Assembly (NCBI GenBank): GCA_029856045.1
Contig: JAHQWG010000028.1
Location: 192,001 to 256,000, forward strand
DNA: 64,000 bases
Direction of reading: 5' to 3'
Source of the DNA: Promethearchaeia archaeon
GTDB lineage: Archaea > Asgardarchaeota > Lokiarchaeia > Sigyniarchaeales > SOKP01
Part shown: in pieces, positions 13,984 to 53,980 of the stretch
How positions within the stretch are numbered: position 1 is the first letter of the stretch
Layout of the letters: every line of letters begins with the position of its first letter
The notes under the pieces: model-generated
Seen by the model: only the letters and a program-made list of their open reading frames with translations
What the model was told of the DNA's origin: nothing
The model's database searches: none
Translations under genes and position numbers: made by a program

Positions 13984-14423
13984 TCTTTATTAAATATTTT
14001 ATTTGGACCTACTGATTTTACATTTTCAACAGTTTTTCGTACAACCTTTGCAAATCTTTCTCCTTCAGCAGCAGAGACCCAAGTAAAATTGAGTCTTTCA
14101 GGTTCAATTCCCAAAAATATCATCAAATCTCTTAAAATCGCAAACCTTCTTCTTGCAACATAATTGCCAGAGATATAGTGACAATCACCAGGATGACATC
14201 CTGAGACAAGAATACCGTCCCAACCATAAGCTAGGCTTTTTACTATGAAGAATGGGTTAATTCGACCTGTACAAGGCACGCGAACAACTCGAATGTTTGG
14301 GGGATATTGAATTCGACTAACTCCCGCTAAATCAGCACCTGCATACGAGCACCAATTACATAAAAACGCAATTATTTTAGGTTTCCACTCCTCTGTTAAA
14401 TTTTCTTTACTTTCATCAGTCAT
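13977..14423 (-). CDS. mvhD: Hydrogenase delta / [2Fe-2S] subunit (MvhD/FlxD)
   Basis: FLCNWCSYAGADLAG, VPCTGR, GCHPGDCHY, WVSAAEG. Confidence 0.93.
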   Translation of the reverse strand: MTDESKENLTEEWKPKIIAFLCNWCSYAGADLAGVSRIQYPPNIRVVRVPCTGRINPFFIVKSLAYGWDGILVSGCHPGDCHYISGNYVARRRFAILRDLMIFLGIEPERLNFTWVSAAEGERFAKVVRKTVENVKSVGPNKIFNKEW

Positions 14424-17441: not shown

Positions 17442-18214
17442 TATAAAGCCTCCTTTAATGCATGATAGTAAGGGGTAATCCCATCTATTCTATTAAAATC
17501 GATAAGATTTTTTGCCTTTAATGAAACAACATGTTCTAAAATTAAACTTGATTCGATATTCAATGATTTTGATAAATCTTTTACTGAAAGTGGTTCTTTT
17601 TCAAGTTTTATTAATATTTTATTACGTAAAAATTCTGAATTGAGAGCATCATCTATTTTTTTTTCATATTCTTCAAATTCAATGATTTCTTCATAAACAT
17701 TTCCAAATTCTGTAATAGTTCGTTCCCTTCCAACTAAAGTACGTAATCTATTATCAGATAAAGTTCTTTTTATTGCTTCTAAATCTTCTTTTAATTTTTG
17801 ATTAGGTTTTGAACCACTAAATGGAGAAGCTCCTTCATTTTTAATTTGTTCTGTAAAGTTCGTTACCACTTGACCAAATCTTACACCTTCAGAAGCTGAA
17901 ACCCACTCAAGACGAAATCTACCAGAAAGACCAATTAGTTGCAATGCTTTAGAAAGCAAGTCTAATTTCATTTTTTCTTCATAATTTCCATCTATATAAT
18001 GGCAGTCTCCAGGATGACACCCCATTACAATAACTCCATCTAGCCCAGTGGCCAATGCTTCAACCACAAATACAGGATCAACTCTTCCACTACACATTAC
18101 CCTAATAACCCTAATATTAGTTGGATATTGGACTCTACTTACGCCTGCAAGATCTGCCCCAGCGTATGAGCACCAATTGCATAAAAACCCTAATATTTTA
18201 GGTTCAAAACTCAT
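17441..18214 (-). CDS. mvhD: MvhD-like [2Fe-2S] subunit with C-terminal winged-HTH-like extension
   Basis: FLCNWCSYAGAD, VMCSGR, GCHPGDCHY; tail PLSVKDLSKSLNIESSLILEHVVSLKAKNLI is HTH-like. Confidence 0.85.
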   Translation of the reverse strand: MSFEPKILGFLCNWCSYAGADLAGVSRVQYPTNIRVIRVMCSGRVDPVFVVEALATGLDGVIVMGCHPGDCHYIDGNYEEKMKLDLLSKALQLIGLSGRFRLEWVSASEGVRFGQVVTNFTEQIKNEGASPFSGSKPNQKLKEDLEAIKRTLSDNRLRTLVGRERTITEFGNVYEEIIEFEEYEKKIDDALNSEFLRNKILIKLEKEPLSVKDLSKSLNIESSLILEHVVSLKAKNLIDFNRIDGITPYYHALKEAL

Positions 18215-21196: not shown

Positions 21197-22087
21197 TTAT
21201 TTATTTGGGGCGTCTAAAATTTTAATTTTTTGTAATAAATTATTAACCCTTACACGGTGAAATTTGAGACCGATTTCTTCACCTTTAATTCCTAAGGCAA
21301 GAGCTATTAACTCAGTTAAATAAAAAACTGGGAAATTGAAATCTGTATTAAGATTTTTGTTAAGTTCCCTTTGATTAAAATCAAATTGTTGATAACATGC
21401 AGGACAAACACAAACTATACAATCAGCACCAGCCTTTTTTATGCTCTCAAGTTTATTTAATAATAATTTTTGTGAAAGTTCTTTATTACTTTTTTCAAGC
21501 GGATTTCCACAACAATCTTTCTTCAATTCATAATCTACCGGTTCGGCTCCAAGAGCTTCAACTATTACATCCAACGTTATTGGTTCAAATGGATCATCCC
21601 ATTGTATGATTTCAGATGGGCGTAGATAATGACAACCAGGGTGACATGCAACTTTTAAATCCTTTAGTGGTTTAATTATATTCTCTTTAATTAAATCAAG
21701 ATTTTCAAATAATACTTGGGCAAAATGCTTAATATTAATATTACCTTGATATTTTTTACCAATCTTATTTAAGATTGAATTAATTTCTTTCTTTTCTTCA
21801 GGGTCATTATTTAAAATATGTTGCACAGCTTTAAGAGTTTCTGTACAACCAGAGCATAGACTTAAAACATCACTATTATCATTCTCATAAAGACTTAAAT
21901 TTCTGGCTCCTAGAGCTAACCAACTCTTATGATCTAGTGCAGCAACTCCTGTTGGATCAGGACAACAAGAATATTGAGTCTGATCAGAAACATTAATACC
22001 AAGTTTTTCAAAGATTTTTCGAGCTGAGGCTTCTAAATAAGGTAATCTTCCTGGAATAACACAACCAAAAAAATATTTATAAGTCAT
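21197..22087 (-). CDS. hdrB: Heterodisulfide reductase subunit B
   Basis: FFGC, SCCPDP, CSGC, HPGCHYLRP, DCCG, CPACYQQFD (two CCG domains). Confidence 0.93.
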   Translation of the reverse strand: MTYKYFFGCVIPGRLPYLEASARKIFEKLGINVSDQTQYSCCPDPTGVAALDHKSWLALGARNLSLYENDNSDVLSLCSGCTETLKAVQHILNNDPEEKKEINSILNKIGKKYQGNINIKHFAQVLFENLDLIKENIIKPLKDLKVACHPGCHYLRPSEIIQWDDPFEPITLDVIVEALGAEPVDYELKKDCCGNPLEKSNKELSQKLLLNKLESIKKAGADCIVCVCPACYQQFDFNQRELNKNLNTDFNFPVFYLTELIALALGIKGEEIGLKFHRVRVNNLLQKIKILDAPNK

Positions 22088-22093
22088 TTTTTA

Positions 22094-22624
22094 CTACTTC
22101 TCTCCTTTTTCTGTTTTTAAATATCCATTTGTATTAATTTTTTTTTCAAAATTTGTAGCTTCTAATAATTTTCCAATTTCTTCTATGTTTGCTGATTCAA
22201 CACTTGGAAGCCCCAATTGCTGCCTTCGTCTAATTATGGGTGCGGTTAAAGGAATTGCTAACCCATATTCTAAAATAGCATTTCCTTGAACATTATAAGC
22301 TTCGGGATAATTTCCTGTTTGAACAATTTTGTTTTTTAAATTATCAAATATTTCTGTTAAAAATACGTTTTGAGGACATTCCTCTACACACATCTGGCAT
22401 GTACTGCATAACCATATATTTGGCTTTTGATCTTTTATTAATAATTCTTTCAAGCCTAATAATGATTCTTCAATAATTTTTCGAGGATTATATTCACCTT
22501 CAGTAGCTAAAGCAACAGGACACGCACTTGAGCATGCTCCACATTGATAACAATAATTTAAGGAGAAATCTTCTTTTACTATCTCTTTACGAAATTCAAA
22601 ATCTACCTTTAACATACCCATCAA
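22094..22624 (-). CDS. hdrC: Heterodisulfide reductase subunit C
   Basis: CYQCGACSSACP and IWLCSTCQMCVEECPQ; lies directly upstream of hdrB. Confidence 0.92.
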   Translation of the reverse strand: MMGMLKVDFEFRKEIVKEDFSLNYCYQCGACSSACPVALATEGEYNPRKIIEESLLGLKELLIKDQKPNIWLCSTCQMCVEECPQNVFLTEIFDNLKNKIVQTGNYPEAYNVQGNAILEYGLAIPLTAPIIRRRQQLGLPSVESANIEEIGKLLEATNFEKKINTNGYLKTEKGEK

Positions 22625-23284: not shown

Positions 23285-24247
23285 ATGGATATTAATAAAT
23301 TACAGACAATACTTAAAAATTACCGAGCGGATCTTAATCTCATTGCCGTTGCAGTGGTTGACCAAAATGGGTTCATCATTGCTTCTGAGATGAAGAATAT
23401 AGAGGAAGATGATACTGTAATTGGTGCAACGACAGGTTTAATTGATTCTTATTTTGAAAGAATCAAAAAGGAGTTTGGATCTAAAGCAGGATTTTTTAAT
23501 ATTACATCAACAGAAGATAAAAAATTCGCATATTGTGGTGCTGGAACCGATGCAATCCTAACCAGTATTTCATTTAAAGATATTCCTGACATTAAATTGA
23601 AAGTATATTCGCTCCATATTGCTGAAAAAGTTAAAAGGATACTTGAGGGTGAAGAAAATATTTCACCAGAAATTCCAGAAATTGTAAAAGTAATGGGGAA
23701 CATGAAAGAAGGGACTTTACCAAAAGGAGAATTTACATCGAAACTTATTGTTACTGGTGATTTTCAAGTTGGAAAAACTAGTTTGATCAGGCGATATGTT
23801 GAAAATAAGTTTTCCGAAAGTTATATCTCTACTATTGGTGTTGATATATCGAAGAAATCAGTAAATTTAAGTGGAAATTGTACGATAAATTTTATTATTT
23901 GGGATATTGGAGGTCAAATTAGTCAGATGGCGCCCTATAGAAGTAGATTCTATCATGGGACTAACACAGTTTTTATTGTTCTTGACCGTACAAGAAGGTC
24001 AACCTTGGATGGTATAAATAAATGGTATAAAGATATGAAAAACTCATTTCCTGACATTAAAAACATTCCTATAGTTCTCCTTGGTAATAAATCAGATCTA
24101 ATCGAAAATATTGAAGTTACGAGTGAAGACATGAAAAGAAAAGCTGAAGAGTGTGGCTTTCATTTTATTGAAACAAGTGCAAGAACTGGAGAAAATGTTT
24201 CTGATGCTTTCAATTATATTGCTTATCGCATTCTGGAGCGTTTTTAA
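23285..24247 (+). CDS. Roadblock/LC7 domain fused to a Rab-like small GTPase
   Basis: N-terminal AVAVVDQNGFIIAS; G1 GDFQVGKTS, G2 STIGVD, G3 WDIGGQ, G4 NKSD, G5 ETSAR; no C-terminal prenylation Cys motif. Confidence 0.9.
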   Translation: MDINKLQTILKNYRADLNLIAVAVVDQNGFIIASEMKNIEEDDTVIGATTGLIDSYFERIKKEFGSKAGFFNITSTEDKKFAYCGAGTDAILTSISFKDIPDIKLKVYSLHIAEKVKRILEGEENISPEIPEIVKVMGNMKEGTLPKGEFTSKLIVTGDFQVGKTSLIRRYVENKFSESYISTIGVDISKKSVNLSGNCTINFIIWDIGGQISQMAPYRSRFYHGTNTVFIVLDRTRRSTLDGINKWYKDMKNSFPDIKNIPIVLLGNKSDLIENIEVTSEDMKRKAEECGFHFIETSARTGENVSDAFNYIAYRILERF

Positions 24248-24321: not shown

Positions 24322-24328
24322 GGAGGTG
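24322..24328 (+). promoter_or_regulatory. Shine-Dalgarno site for the GTG start at 24340
   Basis: GGAGGTG, 11 nt upstream of the in-frame GTG. Confidence 0.65.
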
Positions 24329-24339
24329 GATTAAAGAGA

Positions 24340-25257
24340 GTGCTGAAAGTTCTTTTTAATAACATTTGCATAACTTGAGATAACCGTGGATATTTATTCG
24401 GATTTTCTATTAGAGAAATTTCATATAAGGGAAGACATCTGTTTTATCTTGGGAAGGAAGAATTTTCAGGTCCTTGGTTCAGATTTAGAAGATCTGATCT
24501 TAAAGGAACTGAGGCCTCAGTACTTTTGAAAAACGTCGAACCAACTCCAATTTATAAGTTACTAAACACAAAAACAGGAGGGTCAATTGATCGAGTTACA
24601 ATAGATCTAGATCTCAATGAATACTTGAAAAAGAATATACATGATATAAATGGAGCAAAGAATAATTTAGATCTTTCTAAATCCATCTATATTAGAAAAT
24701 ATATTGATGTATTTCAATTTAAACAACCTTATAATATCGCTTTTTTCACGTTTAAAAATATTGCTCCATTCAAATTGGAAGATGTGTCTTTCTATATGTT
24801 TCTTGATTTTGATATCAATGGATTAGATGGATTTGATAATGATTTAGGCGTATTCGATGAAGAAGATGGAATCATTTACCAATATGATGATACCAATACT
24901 TATGCTGGTTTCTGTTCTGTTATACAACCTAGTAGTTTTGAAATTTCAAATTCTAATAAAATGTTATCGCGAGTAAAATCAATTCCATTAAATAATATCA
25001 TTGAAGGTAAACCCGGTGAAATAACTTCTGCACTTGCATGGAACTTTGGAACATTAAATGAGGGAGAATTGCTACAAATACCTATTATTATCTCTGGTGG
25101 ATTAAGCAAGGAAGAACTATTGTCAAATCTAAAAGAAGGCAAAGAAAGAGCTAATTCATTAATTCCGCAGGTATTAAAATCGATAAATTCGGGAGCAAGA
25201 CAAATTCAAGATGAAAAATTTTTAAAAATGAATGAGACCACTACAGAAGAGTGCTAA
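24340..25257 (+). CDS. Candidate selenoprotein, 305 aa, Sec at residue 13 in a CxxU motif; function unknown (extends the listed 24526 ORF)
   Basis: GTG 24340 gives MLKVLFNNICIT-[TGA 24376-24378]-DNRGYLFGFSIREISYKGRHLFYLGKEEFSGPWFRFRRSDLKGTEASVLLKNVE..., same frame as the listed ORF with only that one stop; SECIS-like hairpin just after the TAA. Confidence 0.75.
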
Positions 25258-25274
25258 GGTTCTCAAGTTTATAA

Positions 25275-25349
25275 AAAATCCAATTAATGATTCAATTAAC
25301 TAAAAAGTTTATAAGTAATTGATGAAAGGCTGGCCTAGCTTTGGATTTT
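25275..25349 (+). promoter_or_regulatory. Eukaryote-type SECIS-like element in the 3' UTR
   Basis: Helix I AAAATCCAA (25275-83)/TTGGATTTT (25341-49); core ATGAT (25287-91)/TGAA (25323-26); helix II TCAATTA-a-CT/AG-TAATTGA; apical loop begins AAAAA (25302-06). Confidence 0.75.
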
Positions 25350-25433: not shown

Positions 25434-28211
25434 ATGAATGCTAATAAGATTGTAATTACACCAGAAACTCATTGGGATAGGGAATGGTACTTACCCTTTC
25501 AAGAGTATAGAGCAAGACTTGTCCAGCTTATGGATAGATTATTAGAAATTTTAAGGAAGGATAAAAATTATTCTAATTTTACATTAGATGGACAAACGAT
25601 CCCAGTATTAGATTATTTAGAAGTAAAACCCCAAAAGAGAGAAGAAATAGAAAAATATGTAAAAGAAGGTCGCCTTTCGATTGGACCTTTTTTCATTTTG
25701 CCGGATGAGTTTCTTATCAGTGGTGAATCAATGATAAGAAATTTAATGTTAGGGCATAAAATTGCCAGATCTTTCGGAAGAATAATGAAAGCAGGATATA
25801 TTCCAGACCCATTTGGACACATTGCACAGCTTCCACAAATTTTAAGCGGTTTTGAATTGCCATCCTTTTTATTTATGAGAGGATTTGGTAATGAATTTGA
25901 AGAAAACAACCTTAATATGGAATTTAATTGGCAAGCTCCGGGTAATGCAGCCTCAATTTTAGCGATACATTTAATAATGGGGTATGGTTCAATTGCAAAT
26001 ATTAATACAAATATACATAAAGGAAAGTACAAAAGCGCTTTAAGACAAATAAGAAGGCGAGTTAAGAATTTGGAAAAATATATTACATCTGACGTAGTTT
26101 TATTGAATAATGGTTCAGATCATTTGAATGCTCAACCTGAAATCTCTATAATTGTGAAACAGTGGAATGAAGAATATGGTAAAGATAAGATTTTAGTCCA
26201 GCAAGATTTTGAGTATTATATTAAAGAAGTATTAAAATCTAATCCTATATTAAAGAATTATCAAGGAGAATTAAGATGGGGTAAATATTTTCATTTATTA
26301 TCTGGTGTATTTTCAGCCAGAATGTGGATAAAGCAACAAAATACTAAAATTGAACATTTTTATGAAAAATACGCAGAACCATTCTCTACAATGGCTTGGG
26401 CGTTAGATAATATCTGTTCTTTTGAATATCCAAAGGATTATTTATGGACAGGATGGAAATGGTTGATAAAAAATCATCCACATGATAGTATTTGTGGGTG
26501 TAGTATTGATGAAGTCCATCAAGAAATGAAAACAAGATTTCAATGGGCGGATCAAATTGGAAATGAAATTTTAAAGGATTCGTTTTTAGAAATTGTTAAA
26601 CAAGTAAATTTGGACAAAACTGGGGATAAAAAAATTGCTCTATTTGTTCTTAATCCTCTCCCATGGGATCGAAAGGATATTACATTTTTTGATTTAATAA
26701 TTCCTATAAAGGAAAAGTCAGAACAATATCCAAATCCCATTAGATTGGTTGATAATAACGGAAAGGAAATTCCGACACAGAACTTTTTGATTGAAGAACA
26801 ACCAAGATACACAGAAGAACATAATAGCACTTATCGCTTCACATTTTTAGCAGATGTCCCGGCATTAGGTTATAGAGTCTATTATTTTATTATGGGAGAA
26901 AGTCAAAAAGATCTCAGCAATCAAAAAAATTTAATCTTAAAAGCAGAAAAGAACACATTAGAAAACACATATTTTAAAATCATAATTAACGAAGATGGAG
27001 CATTAAATGTATTAGATAAACAAAATGGCAAAAATTATAAAAATTTATGTGTATTCGAAGATGTTGGAGATTGGGGCGATGAGTATGATTATTCATGGCC
27101 CAAAAGTGGTACAGGAGATAGACGAATATTATCAACTAGTTTTAAAGATTGGAAATATAATCTTGTTGTGAAAGGACCTACCCAAATAACTGGTAAAATT
27201 GAATACACTTTCAATCTTCCAGTATCATTATCTAAAGATCGTTCTGAACGAGCCAAGGAATTAATTAACAATCAATTGTCTCTATATATTAGTCTATATG
27301 AAGATATAAAGAGAATTGATTTCAAGGTAGAATATAATAATGATAGCAAAGATCATCGATTACGAGTTCTCTTTCCCACAGGCATTAAGAGTAAGGTAGT
27401 TCATGCAGATGGACATTTTTATGTAGTTCCAAGAAATGTGGAGTTACCTAATGATGAAAGATGGGCCCAAAAAGCACTTGGAACCAATCATGAAAAAGAT
27501 TTTGTTGCGGTTAATGATAATAGGACATGTATAGCTGTTTTAAACAAGGGTTTACCTGAATATGAGGCAATACAGAATGAAGATGGAACAATAACTTTTG
27601 CAATAACATTACTAAGGTGTGTTGAGTGGTTATCAAGGGCAGATTTAGCTACTAGAAGATCAAATGCAGGTCCCGATTTAAAAACACCTGAAGCACAGTG
27701 TTTAGGAGACCATACTTTTGAATTTTCACTGGTAATCCAAGAAGGTTTAGGTGATTGGTTAAATTCAAGAATACACATTTATGGTAAAGAATTCAATTGT
27801 CCCTTAATTTCATTTCTTCCTTCAAGTGTAAATTCAATGTATCATGCATTAAATAAAATCCTTTTCTTAGGAATGACTTTTTTAAAATTGGAATTACAAC
27901 ATAAACCAAAAAATCTTCCATTAAGCTTTAGCTTTCTAAAAATTGACAACCCCAATGTGCAGTTATCTGCCTTAAAAAAGGCTGAAAGTGGAGATTATTT
28001 AATAATTCGACTTATAAATATATCAAACAATACTGAAAAGGCAAAACTTAGTTTTTATAATAATATTAAAAATATTGAAATTCTAAATCTTTTAGAAGAG
28101 AAACCAACTAATAGAATAAAAGCAAAACTTTTTCAAATCGACACAAATCAATTGGAAATTATATTAGAACCCCATGTATTAGCTAATATTAAGGTAATAA
28201 TTTCAAAATGA
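25434..28211 (+). CDS. Glycoside hydrolase family 38 (alpha-mannosidase / MngB-like)
   Basis: THWDREWY, FTLDGQT, PDEFLISGES, YIPDPFGH (nucleophile), NGSDH, HPHDSICGCSIDEVH. Confidence 0.93.
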   Translation: MNANKIVITPETHWDREWYLPFQEYRARLVQLMDRLLEILRKDKNYSNFTLDGQTIPVLDYLEVKPQKREEIEKYVKEGRLSIGPFFILPDEFLISGESMIRNLMLGHKIARSFGRIMKAGYIPDPFGHIAQLPQILSGFELPSFLFMRGFGNEFEENNLNMEFNWQAPGNAASILAIHLIMGYGSIANINTNIHKGKYKSALRQIRRRVKNLEKYITSDVVLLNNGSDHLNAQPEISIIVKQWNEEYGKDKILVQQDFEYYIKEVLKSNPILKNYQGELRWGKYFHLLSGVFSARMWIKQQNTKIEHFYEKYAEPFSTMAWALDNICSFEYPKDYLWTGWKWLIKNHPHDSICGCSIDEVHQEMKTRFQWADQIGNEILKDSFLEIVKQVNLDKTGDKKIALFVLNPLPWDRKDITFFDLIIPIKEKSEQYPNPIRLVDNNGKEIPTQNFLIEEQPRYTEEHNSTYRFTFLADVPALGYRVYYFIMGESQKDLSNQKNLILKAEKNTLENTYFKIIINEDGALNVLDKQNGKNYKNLCVFEDVGDWGDEYDYSWPKSGTGDRRILSTSFKDWKYNLVVKGPTQITGKIEYTFNLPVSLSKDRSERAKELINNQLSLYISLYEDIKRIDFKVEYNNDSKDHRLRVLFPTGIKSKVVHADGHFYVVPRNVELPNDERWAQKALGTNHEKDFVAVNDNRTCIAVLNKGLPEYEAIQNEDGTITFAITLLRCVEWLSRADLATRRSNAGPDLKTPEAQCLGDHTFEFSLVIQEGLGDWLNSRIHIYGKEFNCPLISFLPSSVNSMYHALNKILFLGMTFLKLELQHKPKNLPLSFSFLKIDNPNVQLSALKKAESGDYLIIRLINISNNTEKAKLSFYNNIKNIEILNLLEEKPTNRIKAKLFQIDTNQLEIILEPHVLANIKVIISK

Positions 28212-53882: not shown

Positions 53883-53980
53883 GCCTCAGTTGCTTAGCCT
53901 GGTAGAGCGTTGCCTTGGTATCAAATCCGTAGGTTTAAACAGAAAGGCAAAGGTCGCGGGTCCGACTCCCGCCTGAGGCT
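53883..53980 (+). tRNA. tRNA-Thr(GGT) with a 37/38 intron (about 53921-53944)
   Basis: Acceptor GCCTCAG/CTGAGGC, D-arm GCTTAGCCTGGTAGAGC, anticodon arm TTGCC-TTGGTA^A-GGCAA, T-arm GCGGG-TCCGACT-CCCGC. Confidence 0.88.

Follow-up and report, generated by a model that had tools for sequence, protein, structure and literature searches.

Does the in-frame TGA that lies upstream of a short open reading frame (ORF) in an Asgard archaeal genome mark a stop, or is it a selenocysteine (Sec) codon within a longer gene? The question concerns a 64,000 nucleotide (nt) stretch of a Promethearchaeia archaeon genome (assembly GCA_029856045.1, contig JAHQWG010000028.1, positions 192,001 to 256,000 of the forward strand), hereafter called the window, in which an initial annotation made from the letters alone had proposed a hidden selenoprotein with an N-terminal CxxU motif and a eukaryote-type selenocysteine insertion sequence (SECIS). 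Comparative analysis of the locus indicated that positions 24340-25257 on the plus strand very probably represent a selenoprotein gene with a 305 residue product that carries Sec at UGA codon 13. The recoding mechanism is a known one; the protein family is new. The gene is laid out as follows:

24322-24328, plus strand: Shine-Dalgarno sequence GGAGGTG, read directly; a GGAGG motif is kept at the equivalent place in homologous loci
24340-25257, plus strand: full coding sequence of 305 codons with GTG start (24340-24342), UGA as predicted Sec codon 13 and TAA stop (25255-25257)
24367-24369, plus strand: TGC, Cys10, first position of the CxxU motif
24376-24378, plus strand: TGA, predicted selenocysteine codon 13
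25252-25254, plus strand: TGC, Cys305, the C-terminal residue (...TEEC before the TAA), invariant in our alignment A3 and modelled with a predicted local distance difference test score (pLDDT) below 50

Each element on which the initial annotation had built, from the Shine-Dalgarno sequence and GTG 24340 to the in-frame TGA and the TAA, was found in its place. From the GTG the frame runs through VLKVLFNNICIT (12 sense codons) and the TGA into DNRGYLFGF, and the TGA was the single stop within 305 codons. An ORF listing under translation table 11 gave only one ORF here, starting with TTG and 243 amino acids (aa) long (24526-25257), and between the TGA and this TTG the window contained no ATG, GTG or TTG. 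Public records annotate products of 243-289 aa, among which the 243 aa form is the entry for the window protein and its 90% identical relatives. The suspected truncation by gene callers was thereby borne out. In 76 of 80 loci the read-through homologues could be aligned across residues 1-305. An earlier start at ATG 24262, in the same frame, was considered and rejected; this ATG is not conserved, because stops intervene in two homologous loci (L016 and L021), and the Shine-Dalgarno sequence would fall inside the coding sequence.

A protein search returned 187 relatives, all of them from Asgard metagenome-assembled genomes and none with a Pfam domain. Most were annotated as proteins of 286-289 aa starting with MGFSIKE, which corresponds to residues 20-26 of the window protein. 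We read the DNA upstream of the called starts in 80 genome loci and 5 metagenome loci, and in all but two of these the frame was open upstream through a TGA at the same column. The N-terminal peptide was conserved, with the consensus (I)VLKV.F/W-N/H-D/E-I/V-L/F-A-T-TGA-N/D-x-x-G-Y-L/V-M-GFS. Codon 13 was TGA in 77 of 77 distinct N-terminal segments of 60 nt; terminal stops varied (TAA 66, TGA 11, TAG 9). Over these 77 segments the entropy at the first, second and third codon positions was 0.83/0.38/1.50 for the 12 codons before the TGA and 0.87/0.38/1.21 for the 7 codons after it, in the same phase, and the synonymous share of differing codons was 42% in the proposed frame as against 12% and 4% in the shifted frames. 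This variation in a single phase, together with the synonymous excess, therefore argues that the ribosome reads both sides of the TGA in one frame. When 400 Asgard genomes were searched in six frames with a family profile, 212 matched. Within the GTDB family to which the window belongs the gene was detected in 123 of 134 genomes, nearly all with exactly one in-frame TGA, and the protein family was also found in other classes beyond Lokiarchaeia.

The clade of the window itself bears on the position of the start. Where the other clade has Met, the window and the relatives closest to it (57-92% identity) encode Phe or Tyr (TTC, TAT, TTT), and the codon before this position is TTA, CTA, ATG or TTG. 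No start codon (ATG, GTG or TTG) was present in the window and in loci L015, L016 and L020-22 between the TGA and the residues that are invariant throughout the family. These residues include G17, Y18, G21, F22, S23, G44 and P45 (GPW), and in this clade they can therefore be reached only by translation that begins ahead of the TGA. The stretch of 49 codons from the TGA to the TTG, which had earlier been described as plausible protein, was conserved as protein with invariant residues among them.

Homologues with Cys in place of Sec were found in the sister family f3, in which nine genomes (three of them single-contig) showed a full-length match with an ATG start and an uninterrupted frame of 309-323 codons. 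Their N-termini read M..IDYETIC(V/I)(N/E)C(K/Q)(E/A)(K/R)GY(S/F)FGY, and in a MAFFT alignment the second Cys fell in the Sec column and the first in the column of Cys10 of the window protein, giving CxxC where the window has CxxU. The N-terminal extension was thus conserved in homologues, and position 13 was TGA or, in these nine genomes, Cys, and never Trp or any other residue. CxxU itself was found in families f2 and f4 and in the distant class f31 (7 of 7 sampled). The residue at position -3 to Sec was Cys in the genus of the window and in f2, f3, f4 and f31, and Trp, Leu or Phe in other members of the window's family. The proposed N-terminal CxxU accordingly holds for the window, its genus and the outgroup clades and not for most of its own family. 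Because the genus of the window and all outgroup clades sampled have CxxU or CxxC, the motif is probably ancestral, as judged from these alignments, though not universal. The members of f31 (L117, L132-L137) start with ATG and have an extension of about 26 residues before CxxU. The C-terminal Cys had further been suggested as a possible resolving residue. Cys305 was invariant within the order and a Cys near the C-terminus also occurs in f3, but it is absent from f31, so that a resolving role is only a guess.

Downstream of the gene, a hairpin with the character of a eukaryotic SECIS had been noticed within 20 nt of the TAA. We found there an outer helix 17-19 nt after the stop, the AUGA, a loop with an A-run and the GA, arranged as follows:

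25274-25349, plus strand: whole SECIS-like element of the 3' untranslated region (UTR), defined by minimum free energy fold, family alignment and covariation; encloses the SECIS hairpin and a small GC hairpin
25276-25281 paired with 25343-25348, plus strand: helix I (outer helix), beginning 17-19 nt after the TAA
25287-25325, plus strand: SECIS core and upper stem, consisting of AUGA (25287-25290), one unpaired U, a stem of 7 base pairs (bp), the apical loop and U-GA (25323-25325)
25328-25340, plus strand: extra small hairpin (GGCU/AGCU, 5 nt loop) between the SECIS hairpin and the 3' strand of helix I

The upper stem of the window element comprises 7 bp, or 9 bp with one bulged A, and the core lies 30 nt after the TAA; the apical loop of 12-17 nt opens with AAAAA and closes with AG. 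Taken singly, the hairpin was suggestive at most, since its fold was no more stable than that of shuffled sequences (z = -0.06) and a loose SECIS pattern occurred 574 times in the 6.7 Mb that the two strands of this genome (29.4% GC) comprise together, corresponding to a chance of about 1-3% per stretch of 100-300 nt. Its significance lies in its conservation in about 80 homologous loci. A scanner built on published type I criteria ([A/G]UGA-N, a stem of 7-15 bp with at most one mismatch, a loop of 8-20 nt with AAA near its start, and N-[G/A]A) gave a match 8-29 nt after the stop in 80 of 85 TGA-carrying loci. Visual inspection revealed variants of the element in four of the five loci without a match and in another locus that was too short for the scanner; these variants overlapped a UGA stop or had a longer loop, an AGGA core or additional mismatches. 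In the f31 loci named above the UGA stop of the gene doubles as the start of the SECIS core. The majority consensus was AUGA-N-UCAAAUAA-AAAAA-(CC...GG ministem)-AAG-UUAUUUGA-N-GA, and the clade of the window has the stem UCAAUUA/UAAUUGA without the ministem.

An alignment of 49 sequences showed that the AUGA and GA core columns were invariant or nearly so. The upper stem was 99% paired, with compensatory changes in 5 of 8 pairs, and such changes were also seen in the extra hairpin (4 of 4 pairs) and the outer helix (4 of 6). Over the whole structure 13 of 20 pairs showed double changes, the observed measures were reached by none of 500 shuffles, and sliding the partners by 1-3 columns halved the pairing. 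When the regions 3' of the nine f3 Cys homologues were scanned for SECIS elements, eight had no match and the ninth had a single weak match 222 nt from its stop. As anticipated, the element was confined to TGA carriers (80 of 85 loci versus 0-1 of 9 Cys homologues), the exception being three f4 genes that carry the TGA without a canonical element. The same scanner recovered elements directly after the SelD and Sec-containing VhuD genes of this genome. We also built a covariance model from the 3' UTRs of the family (R1), which scored the window element at 65.4 bits and found in the genome only the window gene's own element plus three weak matches inside coding sequence. R1 is family-specific and, unlike the pattern scanner, linked the window element to no other selenoprotein gene. 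Outside the window, a strict match to the SECIS pattern that resembles the family element (AUGAUUCAGUUG...CAGUUGAUGA) was located at G000:C40:7418 on the minus strand. No long ORF was evident that would end shortly before it, and the match may be due to chance or point to a further small selenoprotein gene that has escaped annotation.

The genome also encodes components of the machinery for Sec synthesis and insertion, for which the initial annotation had proposed to look. The three genes listed here are clustered on one contig:

contig C1, 885-2039: SepSecS
contig C1, 2268-2356: tRNA-SeC, anticodon tca
contig C1, 5689-6582: EFSec/SelB homologue

Elsewhere in the genome we found SelD with one in-frame TGA and four FlpD/VhuD genes with two in-frame TGA each. 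SepSecS was present in 148 of 154 genomes of the order, including the genomes with Cys forms, and the few TGA carriers without it were genomes of 79-85% completeness. Two further FlpD/VhuD-like genes, which are Cys forms without in-frame TGA, lie within the window on the minus strand at 14007-14375 and 17837-18196 (G000:C36:206007-206375 and 209837-210196). We propose that translation would start at GTG 24340 behind the Shine-Dalgarno sequence at 24322, that UGA codon 13 would be decoded as Sec by tRNA-Sec and EFSec, and that insertion would be directed by the lokiSECIS-type, type I SECIS starting 17 nt after the TAA.

An AlphaFold2 model based on 61 read-through sequences reached a pLDDT of 82.8 and a predicted template modelling score (pTM) of 0.85, with values below 50 only for residues 7-19 (the Sec arm) and 302-305. 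It consists of a beta-supersandwich and a C-terminal helical hairpin, and its strands E19-21, E24-29, E32-36 and E44-51 all lie within the segment that precedes the TTG-started product. An exhaustive structural comparison with VIA-align (Z 17-19.5, root mean square deviation 2.6-3.0 A over 215-236 residues) placed at the top the N-terminal beta-supersandwich of glycoside hydrolase (GH) family GH94 phosphorylases, the glycoside-phosphorylase domain of cyclic glucan synthase, GH15 glucoamylase/glucodextranase and GH116; galactose mutarotases followed at Z of about 11-12. Foldseek agreed on the families (E = 1.6e-9). A feature search of a protein atlas with the post-UGA part yielded scores that were all below 0.9 and are leads only, with GH94_b-supersand clusters at 0.77-0.80. 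The fold is therefore predicted to be a GH94/GH15-type beta-supersandwich and not that of a thioredoxin-type selenoprotein. This agrees with the earlier impression of a beta-rich protein lacking a thioredoxin fold, and CxxU is not placed at the N-terminus of a helix. The most conspicuous conserved segment is the following:

24805-24843, plus strand: DFDxNG..G...D loop, residues 156-168, with D156, F157, D158, N160, G161, G164 and D168 invariant in 61 sequences

This acidic loop of the beta-sandwich might bind a metal or a ligand. Elsewhere in the protein, invariant positions included many occupied by Asp, Glu, Arg, Tyr, Asn and Gln.

Several observations weigh against the reading of this locus as a selenoprotein gene or against the function that could be attached to it. 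The spacer of 11 nt between the Shine-Dalgarno sequence and the GTG is rather long. The window element showed the missing stability excess described above, and no Rfam SECIS model matched it at the gathering threshold or at E <= 10, where only weak C/D-box and chance-level matches were obtained. The three sampled f4 genes (L109, L112, L113) carry the TGA but no canonical eukaryotic SECIS-like (eSECIS-like) AUGA...GA hairpin. In these genes a conserved GC-rich hairpin, CCCAAG-UNGCC-CUUGGG, follows the stop and could be a divergent Sec insertion signal. On the side of function, the CxxU motif has no Cys in most members of the GTDB family of the window, the Sec arm and the C-terminal Cys were both modelled at pLDDT below 50, and no Pfam family was found for the protein at E <= 0.1.

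Simple read-through also does not fit five genomes of one genus (L059, L077, L111, L115 and L116), in which a hairpin-forming insertion of 28-32 nt lies directly 3' of the TGA. The insertion has conserved ends (AUCUUC...GAAGCAAGA), a covarying stem and a variable length that is not a multiple of three, and in each of the two genomes tested it was present as a single copy. Because of it the 12-codon leader and the main ORF are in different frames, yet the leader, the ATG-started main ORF and the 3' SECIS are all retained. An in-frame Sec product would therefore need the insertion to be removed from the mRNA or to be bypassed by the ribosome. The insertion may be a mini-intron, a site of ribosomal bypass or a switch to a Sec-less protein; a bulge-helix-bulge intron was considered, and only one 3 nt bulge was apparent.

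These five genomes also bear on the strongest alternative, in which the first 12 codons form an independent upstream ORF or leader that ends at the UGA, and the main protein is made by downstream re-initiation and contains no Sec. We consider this very improbable. The conservation of the leader despite the frame-breaking insertion would agree with it, as would the predicted disorder of the N-terminal arm and the ATG (MGFSIKE...) that most of the window's family has 7 codons after the TGA and that is used by gene callers. However, the f3 Cys homologues translate the same segment within one uninterrupted ATG-started ORF, and the six loci of the window's clade (the window, L015, L016 and L020-22) offer no ATG, GTG or TTG from which re-initiation could produce the family-invariant residues. 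The six codons between the TGA and the ATG show third-position variation of the coding type, and the TGA is in frame with the main ORF in all genomes but the five with the insertion. A plain stop, moreover, would be expected neither to be TGA in every one of the 77 segments nor to come with a SECIS that is absent from the Cys forms.

A second alternative accepts the 3' hairpin as a structured RNA of another kind, for instance another kink-turn RNA such as a C/D-box-like small RNA, a terminator or a stability element, and any read-through would then have a different cause. In its favour we can cite a sub-threshold Rfam match to the C/D-box family snoR21 at 25277-25347 (25.5 bits versus a gathering threshold of 45, E = 0.11), the T-run after the element, and again the lack of thermodynamic excess over shuffles. 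The element nevertheless combines all described features of lokiSECIS elements (AUGA, a stem of 7-9 bp, the A-run, AG, and GA after the stem), its position is the one typical of Lokiarchaeial selenoprotein genes, and in this genome the SelD and VhuD genes carry the same pattern. Because it tracks the TGA and is missing from the Cys homologues, a non-SECIS kink-turn is an even poorer candidate than an upstream leader. That the TGA is a nonsense mutation or assembly error, leaving a pseudogene or the 243 aa TTG ORF as true gene, has in its favour only what table 11 ORF finding and the public records of 243-289 aa annotate, and it can practically be discarded given the same TGA at the same codon in more than 120 independently assembled genomes, the conservation as protein of the 49 codons up to the TTG, and a modelled fold that needs the four strands encoded there.

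Returning to the selenoprotein interpretation, the genomic neighbourhood offered some indications of function. Directly upstream lies a small GTPase gene:

23285-24247, plus strand: small GTPase of 320 aa with a Ras/Roc/Arf domain at residues 153-317 (Pfam Ras, 1.6e-38)

In relatives of this GTPase, including the orthologous neighbours in the Cys clade, a Roadblock/LC7 match was detectable in the N-terminal half. In 74 of 78 loci the family gene is preceded by a GTPase gene for 318-331 aa, with 86-204 nt between the end of the latter and the true start of the former; the two genes are likewise neighbours in two complete f3 (Cys-form) genomes. A complex prediction for the window GTPase (single sequence) and the post-UGA part of the protein (alignment A5) scored 0.00, which is evidence neither for nor against binding. 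On the other side, a GH38 alpha-mannosidase gene (25434-28211, plus strand) follows the selenoprotein gene in the window, and two distant relatives have a gene of this kind within a distance of a few genes; in the Cys clade f3 a GH2 gene precedes the GTPase gene. Glycoside hydrolases thus recur near this protein with its glycoside-hydrolase-type supersandwich (loci L119, L120, L121 and L122 and the window).

The product would comprise a flexible N-terminal arm with Cys10-x-x-Sec13, a stand-alone beta-supersandwich, a C-terminal helical hairpin and the terminal Cys305. We tentatively suggest that the CxxU arm might form a reversible selenenylsulfide and serve as a thiol/selenol oxidoreductase or redox switch acting on a ligand, perhaps a glycan, for which the binding surface would be the conserved acidic face of the sandwich, with DFDxNG..D and further invariant Asp, Glu, Arg and Tyr residues, possibly as a functional unit with the Roadblock-Ras GTPase encoded directly upstream. 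This function is possible but doubtful. A more specific version, in which the selenoprotein is the redox-sensing partner of the eukaryote-like GTPase and couples an Asgard GTPase switch to selenium/thiol redox, possibly on glycans in view of the glycoside-hydrolase-type fold and the GH38 or GH2 genes near the family gene in two distant clades, is speculative and in our view unlikely.

Two other features of the window were recorded. At 21197-22624 on the minus strand, genes for a CCG cysteine-rich domain protein (296 aa) and a 4Fe-4S dicluster protein (176 aa) are adjacent and form an HdrB/HdrC-like pair, which in L015 also adjoins the GTPase gene. At 53883-53980 on the plus strand, Rfam detected a tRNA of 98 nt (49 bits) that was not reported by ARAGORN and is probably an intron-containing archaeal tRNA.

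The selenoproteomes of archaea are regarded as very small. The family described here would add one to the seven selenoprotein families listed for Asgard archaea, and within Lokiarchaeia its distribution is as wide as that of SelD. It escapes homology-based and Cys-pair-based pipelines because Sec lies 13 residues from the start and gene callers pick a downstream start, and the gene is truncated in public annotations of several hundred genomes. Mariotti et al. (2016, PMC4989117) described SPS/SelD, VhuU, VhuD, HdrA and PrxL as Lokiarchaeial selenoprotein families, Sun (2021) listed three such families and Valentin-Alvarado (2024) four. The homology-based Asgard selenoproteome of Huang, Xiao and Zhang (2024, PMC11227280), which covers known families only, comprises SelD, FrhA, HdrA, FrhD, Prx-like, AhpF-N-like and DsbA-like proteins, and a review of May 2026 counts 11 archaeal selenoprotein families. 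The present family is not among the selenoproteins listed in any of these five sources, and it is missing from the seven families of Huang et al. despite its presence in 123 of 134 genomes of the window's GTDB family. The earlier suspicion of a new selenoprotein family is thereby supported.

No factor that binds Asgard SECIS elements is known, and SBP2 was undetected in Lokiarchaeota (PMC4989117). The approximately 80 further natural examples of eukaryote-like SECIS elements reported here should be useful for defining the target of such a factor. The CxxC forms in three single-contig f3 genomes provide a clean Sec/Cys pair, and the constant pairing with the Roadblock-Ras GTPase gene is a testable lead to the function of an Asgard small GTPase.

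With regard to known systems, the predicted fold is shared with the N-terminal beta-supersandwich of GH94, GH15 and GH116 enzymes (PF06165 GH94_b-supersand and relatives). The window protein differs from these in being a stand-alone domain without the catalytic (alpha/alpha)6 domain and without a sequence-level Pfam match, and in adding the CxxU arm and the C-terminal helical hairpin; the shared fold does not show a shared function. With thioredoxin-fold selenoproteins (SelW-like, DsbA-like, AhpF-N-like) it has in common that two residues separate Cys from Sec and that CxxC homologues exist, whereas its motif is located in an apparently unstructured N-terminal arm and most of the window's family has lost the Cys. 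The closest parallel is found in the Lokiarchaeial genes with lokiSECIS elements, for which AUGA, an A-run, AG closing the loop, GA after the stem and nearness to the stop have been described (Mariotti et al. 2016, PMC4989117). The gene resembles them in the in-frame UGA, the features of the 3' UTR hairpin close to the stop, the tolerated terminal UGA beside the SECIS and the Sec machinery. However, the protein is unrelated to all five families known from these genes, its Sec is residue 13 of a flexible arm, and the SECIS of the family is enclosed, along with an extra small hairpin, by a conserved outer helix. Most family members further have a type II-like ministem, whereas the clade of the window has a type I loop. 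Compared to the models of Huang et al. (PMC11227280), in which type I eSECIS-like elements are defined by a GA_GA core, an upper stem of 7-15 bp and a loop of 8-20 nt, the window element agrees with type I and the elements of the majority clade fit type II.

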